Notes: generated by a model not told the origin, from the sequence alone. DNA of 64,000 nucleotides from Escherichia coli (GCF_001677475.2 NZ_CP015229.1), one strand, 5' to 3'; shown: positions 46,501-48,131, numbered from the stretch's first letter. Numbers and translations: made by a program.

Positions 46501-48131
46501 GCAGTTTCGCGAGTCACGTTTTCCGGGCGCACAATGGAAGGTGCTTCAGTAATGTACGCCAGCTCATTTTTATCCCAGGCACGTTTCTCGCCGAAGGCCA
46601 GCCAGTAGTTTTTATCATTACGCGCCATCAGAATCGGGAACGCCGCGTTGGAGATATTCACCACAGCCTGACCGCGCGCATTACCGGTGCTGCCATAGAA
46701 GTTGGTAGAGTCATGGAATACGTGGAACTTGCTGACAGATTTGTAACTTGTATCCACACCCCACAGCTTGTTGATAACACTCTGAATCTGACCATCATTG
46801 ACATTGCGCGTCGTCAGCGAGAACCAGCGCGCCTGGTTACAGCCGCCGATTTCCGCACAAATCGCGGTATCAATCTCTTTTGCCTGGCCAGATTCAAACT
46901 GCTCAAGAAATTCGTTTGGCAGCACAACGGTTTTATCACCTTCATCCAGCGTCGTACCATTGGATAACGAGAGATTGATGATCTCGTTGATCACGTTGGG
47001 ATATTCGGCAAAGACCTTGCGTACATCGTCCGGAACAACACGAGTACTATTTTGACCAGTCGTCGAATAACGATGAATGAGCTGATCGATATTTGCCCCG
47101 CGAACTTCATCACCCAATTCAGTCAGCGCAATGGTCGACTTATTGCCACGTACTGAGCCCAGTTCAAAGGTATCGATACCAAAGGAGATGGTTTCGCCCC
47201 AGCTAAAGGAGAATTTACCGTTTTCGTCAGTTACGCCACGGCCTGAATTGGTGTAGTAGTCAACGCCAGCAACACCGTTCCCCAGGCTATCCACCAGTTG
47301 GCCTTCGGAAAGAATGATTTCAGTGGGTTGATACTGATAAAACTGTTCCGCGTTAGCCGACACGAAGGACGCGTTCAGATCCGGTTTTGTTCCCTCTGTC
47401 GTGACTGGCACTACCGTTGAGGTATGGGTGGACGGCGCTTTATCAGTCGCAGCATTGTTTTCCACCTCTTCATTGACCAGCTTGCTGAAATTGTCTGTTG
47501 CCAGATCAATTTGCTTATACAGTTTTTCAAATCGCGCGCGATCAACCACTGACGAGAAAGTAAGACAAAGCTGTTCTGCATCTGCGGGGCAACTGTCGCT
47601 GGACGTCACCAGAGAGATGGCGTTGGTTTTCTTATTTTCAGAATTCGCCAGCTCCTGCGCGTCCTCCAGACTAAACGACACTTTGTCAACCGCACGCAGG
47701 CTACGCGCAGCTTCTGACTGGGTGTTGAAAGTTGCAATGGTCGTACTGCCAACGACACAACTCACGGTGTTGCCAGGTGTAAAAGTAAAGCCATCGCTGG
47801 ATTCACCATTACAGGTAGCACCAGTTACCCGCTGGCTTCCGCCCAGGGTCAGATAACCCGTTTTCGTAGGAACAGGTTCTGGCTCCGGTTCAGGTGTTGG
47901 CTCAGGATCAGGTGTCGGTTCCGGCGTAGGTTCTGGGTCCGGCGTCGGCTCAGGCGTCGGCTCCGGGTTTGGTGTTGGCTCAGGTTTCACTTCCGGCAAA
48001 GACCCTGTTCCAGAATCTACAGGCGGCGTATCGGAGGAAGATCCGGAACCACCGCCATCACAACCGGCTAACAGGGTTGCACTCAAAATAGCCGCTAAAA
48101 GCGATTTCTTATATTTAAATTTCTTATTCAT
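43572..48131 (-). CDS. sslE: SslE/YghJ secreted lipoprotein mucinase (M60-like metalloprotease), a known type II secretion substrate
   Basis: [24 protein letters not shown] lipobox N-terminus, Pro-rich PEPTPxPEPTP repeats, HEVGH zinc motif; about 1519 aa. Confidence 0.85.

Follow-up and report, generated by a model that had tools for sequence, protein, structure and literature searches.

A proline-alternating repeat in the N-terminal linker of the Escherichia coli mucinase SslE: probable part of a disordered tether, with length alleles that arise only rarely

The proline-rich repeat near the N-terminus of the Escherichia coli mucinase SslE probably forms the main part of an extended, acidic and disordered tether that runs from Cys24 to residue 90 and holds the enzyme off the outer membrane. 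At the DNA level the repeat is a rarely varying and not a hypervariable locus. Both the linker and the gene had already been described in the literature; added here are a list of the length alleles and of the slippage signatures they bear, the scrambling of codons within the repeat, and the finding that the threonines of the repeat fall into a blind spot of glycoproteomics. The anatomy of the segment, its predicted disorder, the proline register, the retention of a tether in distant homologues and the length distribution were obtained in this study. Lipid anchoring, surface exposure and release of the protein are taken from the literature, and an extended shape and a function as spacer are what we infer.

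The repeat was analyzed in a window consisting of the whole 64,000-nucleotide stretch of DNA, in which it lies within an open reading frame that is sslE (yghJ) in its usual chromosomal setting (Table 1). The predicted product is a lipoprotein M60-like zinc metalloprotease (mucinase). The first-pass annotation had named the gene as SslE, and this identity was borne out by the Pfam domains and by the RefSeq annotation of matching E. coli loci, which carry the label "sslE: lipoprotein metalloprotease SslE". The start ATG at 48131 agreed with the RefSeq CDS starts in the compared loci (L001-L022). Matches of the protein to DUF4092 (residues 417-585, E=7.6e-91), M60-like_N (residues 1081-1164, E=6e-11) and Peptidase_M60 (E=1.4e-36) were all far above the curated cut-offs, and the zinc motif HEVGH (HEXXH) was located at residue 1303. 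Over its full length (1-1519) SslE aligned with 3158.7 bits to PDB chain 23px_A, a chain of 1520 aa named "Putative lipoprotein AcfD homolog"; a literature search found no paper for the PDB entries 23px, 23py and 23pz. Lipobox, domains, T2SS-beta neighbourhood and overall similarity all agreed with membership in the SslE/AcfD family of lipoprotein zinc metalloproteases.

The neighbouring T2SS-beta operon is intact, with the gene order A24 peptidase, pilotin, GspC, D, E, F and then K, L and M; between gspF and gspK there are smaller ORFs that were not scanned for families. Upstream of sslE lies glcA and, further out, glcB. Of 5,426 complete E. coli genomes searched, about 4,100 contained sslE-annotated loci that shared 90-97% DNA identity with the 5' part of the gene. 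The sslE 5' region was missing altogether from about 1,330 of the 5,426, and many genomes carried a decayed sslE, with an IS1 insertion or with deletions that fuse its 5' end to gspJ, gspK, gspF or gspM. Among the same 5,426 genomes the closest match to glcB had an identity of 97.8% and the closest match to the sslE 5' region (47560-48260) one of 97.3%, in both cases in the canine strain 1190. The sequence suggests that the lineage of the window is a divergent Escherichia outside mainstream E. coli.

Table 1. Positions of the sslE features and of neighbouring elements, counted from the first letter of the window.
Feature	Positions	Strand	Basis or remark
sslE (yghJ) CDS	43572-48131	-	1519 aa plus stop; translation
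Signal peptide and lipobox, M1-C24, LLAG/C	48060-48131	-	sequence reading
Asp25, +2 of the mature lipoprotein	48057-48059	-	sequence reading
Gly/Ser-rich first part of the tether, D25-V48, 24 residues	47988-48059	-	sequence; pLDDT 31-48
(X-Pro)20 repeat, K49-P88, 40 aa	47868-47987	-	translation; 20 consecutive X-Pro dipeptides
14-bp direct repeat CCTGAGCCAACACC, copy 1	47971-47984	-	sequence comparison
12-bp tandem duplication, GAGCCGACGCC at offset 12	47941-47963	-	Tandem Repeats Finder x1.9, 100% match; exact 11-mers at 47941-47951 and 47953-47963
14-bp direct repeat CCTGAGCCAACACC, copy 2	47893-47906	-	78 bp from copy 1; sequence comparison
Unit 16, ACACCT, Thr-Pro	47892-47897	-	absent from 38-aa alleles
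First folded N-terminal domain, initial part with beta strands, K90-N136	47724-47864	-	AlphaFold model; homologue conservation
One-codon indel downstream of the repeat, residues ~106-107	~47811-47816	-	side observation
Hypervariable patch after the repeat, residues ~119-130	~47740-47780	-	side observation
Peptidase_M60 catalytic domain	43740-44618	-	residues 1172-1464; Pfam
A24 prepilin peptidase	within ORF 42569-43645	-	Pfam A24
T2SS pilotin	42093-42503	-	Pfam T2SSS_2
T2SS-beta operon	31616-43645	-	downstream of sslE; NCBIfam, Pfam, ORF list
glcB	50654-52825		upstream of sslE

The first-pass annotation had reported tandem proline-rich repeats at 47850-47995. The repeat is real: the peptide claimed there corresponds exactly to residues 50-86, and the repeat proper lies inside this interval. 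Its placement had to be corrected in that the repeat does not stand directly after the lipobox, from which it is separated by the 24 Gly/Ser-rich residues D25-V48, and does not link the anchor to the catalytic domain, since it precedes the first N-terminal domain and M60 follows only ~1,080 residues further on. Directly after P88 the protein continues with TKTGYL. Proline makes up 4.4% of SslE outside the repeat, so that 20 alternate prolines would be expected by chance about 1e-24 times over the protein, which excludes a chance origin of the X-Pro register. The 66 residues of the tether (D25-K90) contained 35% proline and 23% acidic residues and carried a net charge of -13.

Ahead of the tether, only 2 of the 72 columns of the signal peptide and lipobox varied among 23 alleles, and the lipobox cysteine (C24) was kept in all 22 compared E. 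coli alleles. Aspartate at position +2 is the classical residue of E. coli lipoproteins for retention in the inner membrane (Lol avoidance). By this sorting rule Asp25 would suit a lipoprotein kept at the inner membrane until its type II export; the +2 residue in distant SslE homologues was H, N, K, S or A.

Structure was modelled with AlphaFold2 on an 11-sequence alignment, and only the domain boundary was used from this model, whose mean pLDDT of 58.6 is weak. No secondary structure was predicted for residues 1-88 (pLDDT 31-57), the Gly/Ser-rich part D25-V48 included, the first predicted strand spanned residues 90-95, and pLDDT rose to 68-80 over residues 91-140. The boundary at residue 90 coincides with the construct start of Corsini et al. 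2022 (PMC8881592), who removed mature residues 1-66 for structural work, began their construct at mature residue 67 (precursor residue 90) and referred to what they had removed as "L: flexible linker" and "an unstructured ~5 kDa region". Residues 44-90 were named the "poly proline-rich domain" by Kern et al. 2023 (PMC10637626). Both papers deal with the same protein segment as the present analysis and the boundaries agree (precursor 89; 44-90), but length alleles and their mechanism are absent from both. A literature search with the peptide string of the repeat returned no match.

The regularity of the peptide is not reflected in its DNA. The periods that Tandem Repeats Finder reported were 30, 18 and 12. 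Their scores ranged from 46 to 93, and matches within them were just 70-76% with the exception of one perfect 12-bp stretch at 47941-47963. The peptide was re-encoded 5,000 times with the codon usage of the gene, and the observed synonymous codons were also shuffled within each amino acid. At offsets 6-30 the DNA self-identity observed was not above either of the two codon-randomised expectations, and it was lower than expected at offset 12 (P=0.02) and offset 30 (P=0.055), both values being given without correction for testing at five offsets. Exact in-register matches in the repeat DNA were no longer than 11 bp. Proline codons were CCT (8), CCA (5) and CCG (7), as compared with 68% CCG in the remaining gene (chi-square P=0.015). 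The periodicity thus exists at the peptide level, on codon-scrambled DNA that offers little substrate for misalignment. A plus-strand gene over the repeat (47850-47995) was considered and rejected: the antisense Gly-Ser/Val frame, which is there because it is the complement of the proline-codon periodicity, has a stop just upstream, and none of the listed plus-strand ORFs of at least 80 aa covers the repeat.

To describe the length alleles, 22 E. coli alleles with differing match lengths were picked and compared together with the window, giving a set of 23 that was chosen for diversity and not for frequency. The repeat was 40 aa long in 13 of these and 38 aa in seven, with one allele each of 36, 42 and 14 aa. 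Repeat number across sslE alleles was accordingly not invariant, with five length classes, and the polymorphism was VNTR-like and in frame, the alleles differing by 6, 12 or 78 bp. Every second position was proline in 23 of 23 alleles, and the X positions were almost only E, D or T. The window allele has KPEP where KPDP is usual, and its best match among complete E. coli genomes had 98.9% identity over 263 nt; in the K-12 and ST131 alleles one threonine of the repeat is replaced by Ile or Met.

All indels behind these length classes were located inside the repeat, were multiples of 6 bp and were bounded by direct repeats. The 38-aa forms lack an ACACCN unit that in the common alleles lies between CCA…CCA, while L014 and L022 differ by having two versus three copies of the perfect tandem unit GAGCCA. 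Compared to L003, the 36-aa allele L017 is 12 bp shorter, having lost a copy from the 12-bp tandem duplication GAGCCGACGCCN. In the 42-aa allele L018, 6 bp were gained by duplication of GATCCT, and the 78 bp lost from the 14-aa allele L016 equal the exact spacing of the 14-bp direct repeat CCTGAGCCAACACC. The rare length variants differed by 0-1 SNP in the compared flanks from a 40-aa allele and are sporadic, recent events on stable haplotypes. L016 comes from a clinical isolate and has an intact annotated reading frame; its persistence means that the full repeat length is not essential for the gene to persist.

Frequencies were estimated separately. A query bracketing the repeat matched 4,080 records, and a sample spaced evenly down the ranking provided 59 full-length matches, with a length of 40 aa in 49, 38 aa in eight (~14%), 36 aa in one and 42 aa in one. 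The Simpson diversity of repeat length in this sample (n=59) was 0.29, and all K-12 derivatives sampled had a single repeat length. With a 47-nt query for the long-type junction, which distinguishes the 40-aa from the 38-aa form, 3,431 of the 4,080 records (84%) matched at a coverage of at least 80%, and the junction count and the sample of 59 agree on the predominance of the long form. The counts from a 53-nt query for the 38-aa junction were left unused, as this query also aligned to long alleles despite the 6-bp gap and gave partial matches. The usual change in length amounts to two residues, or ~0.6 nm of ~12 nm. The first-pass annotation had suggested that copy number varies by slippage and so changes linker length: the existence of lengths of 14, 36, 38, 40 and 42 aa and the direct-repeat-bounded indels uphold the mechanism, but not a readily variable linker, since change is rare.

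Two further sites of variation lie close to the repeat. A one-codon indel just downstream (…VTGATCNG… versus …VTGDITCND…) was present in 22 of the 59 sampled E. coli genomes and accounts for a "+3" length class; L012, L015 and L019 confirmed it. The hypervariable patch that follows occurs in three versions, two of which are TPGEDVTCVAGNT and TPGDKVTCVAGNN. The 38-aa repeat DNA of L001, L008 and L011 was identical, a linked synonymous SNP included, although the three alleles carry three different downstream haplotypes, which indicates that recombination has broken the sequence somewhere between the repeat and the patch at residue ~119. The spread of the 38-aa form consequently points to recombination rather than to recurrent identical slippage.

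An adaptive variable-length locus, in which a slippage-prone in-frame repeat tunes the linker through its copy number or varies an exposed antigen, was weighed against these data. Such a locus could draw on the five length classes and the at least five independent indel events behind them, all with slippage signatures, on the recent derivation of the rare variants from near-identical alleles, on the occurrence of the 38-aa form on at least three flanking haplotypes, and on the repeat region being an antibody target in the native protein. We consider it very unlikely, however, because the long-type junction is kept in 84% of the ~4,080 records, length diversity is low and K-12 derivatives are uniform, because the codon-scrambled DNA is no more self-identical than random synonymous coding, with proline codons evenly spread and not dominated by CCG, and because the one variant found beside three haplotypes has the same repeat DNA in each. 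With phase-variable contingency loci sslE shares tandem repeats in the gene of a surface protein and slippage-type indels. It differs from them in its imperfect units, in the absence of on/off switching and in the predominance of one junction type: a long tract of perfect units was not found (70-76% matches, longest run 11 bp), no length change that would switch expression was seen, the frame being intact in every observed indel, and variation among close relatives was not frequent (84% long junction, diversity 0.29). The length of the repeat looks weakly constrained rather than tuned.

Outside the main allele set, Escherichia sp. E1V33 carried a 36-aa version of the repeat with a different unit order. 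Distant homologues were searched with the folded region and consisted mostly of truncated or fused E. coli fragments, with ~8 informative N-termini. In these eight homologues, which include sequences from Escherichia, Photobacterium, Vibrio and the SAR324 cluster, an acidic low-complexity tether of 28-71 aa separates the lipobox Cys from the conserved L..GG...CNG domain. The tether sequences were mutually unrelated and rich in either Pro or Ser/Thr. Closer examination revealed Pro-rich tethers in homologue P0043 (EPEITPPPV twice) and in the Photobacterium homologue P0057 (IPPPVVDPE twice), a shorter tether of moderate Pro content in Vibrio ponticus, and Ser/Thr-rich tethers with almost no Pro in the SAR324-cluster homologue and two similar proteins, one of which has KENSTSS twice. 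What is conserved is the property of an acidic disordered spacer and not its sequence, a pattern expected of a tether and not of a recognition signal.

A genome-wide scan for the DNA pattern of the repeat found three loci. One of them, L024 (JAIJJM010000973.1), is a 1,032-nt contig from a metagenome-assembled genome binned as "Collinsella sp.". Its product is the N-terminus of E. coli SslE, including a repeat of the standard 40 aa, and its place in that bin is almost certainly due to contamination. The locus L023 of E. albertii NBRC 107761 (NZ_BBMY01000067.1) begins 10 bases before the flank match with "…PAPTKTGYL", the last codons of the repeat; its start within the repeat may reflect an assembly break there.

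The homologues also bear on a role of the Pro-rich segment in sorting or secretion, either as a signal recognised by T2SS-beta or the pilotin or as a bar to the Lol pathway. Type II secretion substrates are recognised as folded proteins, which counts against such a signal. Its position right after the lipobox and Asp+2 would suit this role, and no secretion signal has been defined for type II substrates (DeCanio 2013). On the other hand, homologues with a common downstream domain do not conserve this sequence, secretion was blocked by C-terminal fusions and not by N-terminal changes (DeCanio 2013), and the gene has persisted, intact and annotated, with a repeat of 14 aa, so that we regard a sorting function as highly improbable.

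Compatible with a spacer is an O-glycosylated mucin-like stalk, in which the six Thr-Pro sites, with T53, T59, T63, T69, T73 and T79, would be sugared and the segment would be stiff, protease-proof, immunodominant and possibly a decoy epitope. According to the literature, YghJ of ETEC has 54 mapped O-glycosites, representing ~25% of its Ser/Thr and mostly situated in exposed unstructured regions. Kern et al. 2023 (PMC10637626) found antibodies to residues 44-90 to be strong after glycosylated and weak after non-glycosylated YghJ, and their non-glycosylated construct kept the native N-terminus. Immunogenicity that is tied to native production hints at a property beyond passive spacing. This gap in immunogenicity could, however, stem from differences in lipidation, conformation or processing between the preparations. 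Residues 25-90 yielded zero mapped glycosites, in a region that the tryptic workflow could not see: the published YghJ list begins at residue 99 and the first recovered tryptic peptide at residue 91, and the peptide C24-K90, encoded at 47862-48062, is unobservable because trypsin leaves Lys-Pro bonds uncut and the cell-bound form carries a lipid at its N-terminus. Also speaking against a stalk of this kind are the Thr to Ile or Met replacement in the K-12 and ST131 alleles and several distant homologues with Pro-rich tethers that are poor in Thr. Taken as a whole this reading is unlikely. Its milder form, a stalk that is simply O-glycosylated within the blind spot of tryptic glycoproteomics, is a real if minority possibility. 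Highly improbable is a glycosylated, mucin-mimicking stalk that would be cut by the M60 domain of SslE itself or by another SslE molecule and would act as a release switch between the anchored and the soluble form, with the length alleles altering the rate of release.

Several known segments resemble the SslE repeat in composition and position. The proline-rich spacer of TonB, (Glu-Pro)n(Lys-Pro)m, is regarded as extended and, like the SslE repeat, places charged X-Pro units between a functional domain and its anchor in a membrane. Half of the TonB spacer is basic, and TonB reaches across the periplasm from the inner membrane, whereas the SslE segment is purely acidic, contains Thr and lies outside the cell, and there is no homology between the two. 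Trypanosome procyclin (PARP) likewise has Glu-Pro repeats near a lipid anchor on the cell surface; as a family assignment procyclin (PF05887) was rejected, residues 41-88 scoring 33.3 bits against a gathering cut-off of 100, and the resemblance is compositional. The PT boxes of secreted glycoside hydrolases and the hinge of IgA1 are extended Pro/Thr linkers that are often O-glycosylated and protease-resistant. SslE shares with them the use of short Pro-Thr-rich repeats as joining segments, but they join two folded domains, while the SslE repeat joins a lipid anchor to a domain and glycosylation there is hypothetical.

The disordered tether remains the reading that we prefer. With proline at every second residue neither helix nor sheet is possible, and by analogy with other X-Pro repeats the chain would be extended and polyproline-II-like. 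At ~0.31 nm per residue, 40 residues of this composition would give a length of ~12 nm. SslE is reported to be lipid-anchored and surface-exposed and also to be released, with an export that depends on T2SS-beta (DeCanio 2013). Following this export, the tether would keep the ~160-kDa enzyme at a distance from the outer membrane with its negatively charged surface, and the Gly/Ser stretch together with the repeat would let it reach further and move freely. The length occasionally changes, always in frame, by slippage during replication or by illegitimate recombination at short direct repeats, and such changes rarely spread. The two-residue polymorphism is unlikely to matter, and the tether of the 14-aa allele would be shorter by ~8 nm. 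The persistence of this allele and the homologues with tethers of 28-31 residues and almost no Pro argue against a spacer, as does the release of SslE into the medium, since a spacer to the membrane would be of no use to the free enzyme. The literature was found to contain no experiments on the function of the SslE linker.

For basic biology these results carry little weight, as they concern a known disordered linker of a well-studied protein, and owing to its low diversity the repeat is a poor typing marker. Their relevance lies with vaccine work: SslE/YghJ is a vaccine candidate whose linker has been reported as a dominant antibody target only in the native protein, and this linker hardly varies in length (84% long form), has an unbroken X-Pro register and is invisible to tryptic mapping of glycosites. 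It is therefore a region worth non-tryptic mass spectrometry.
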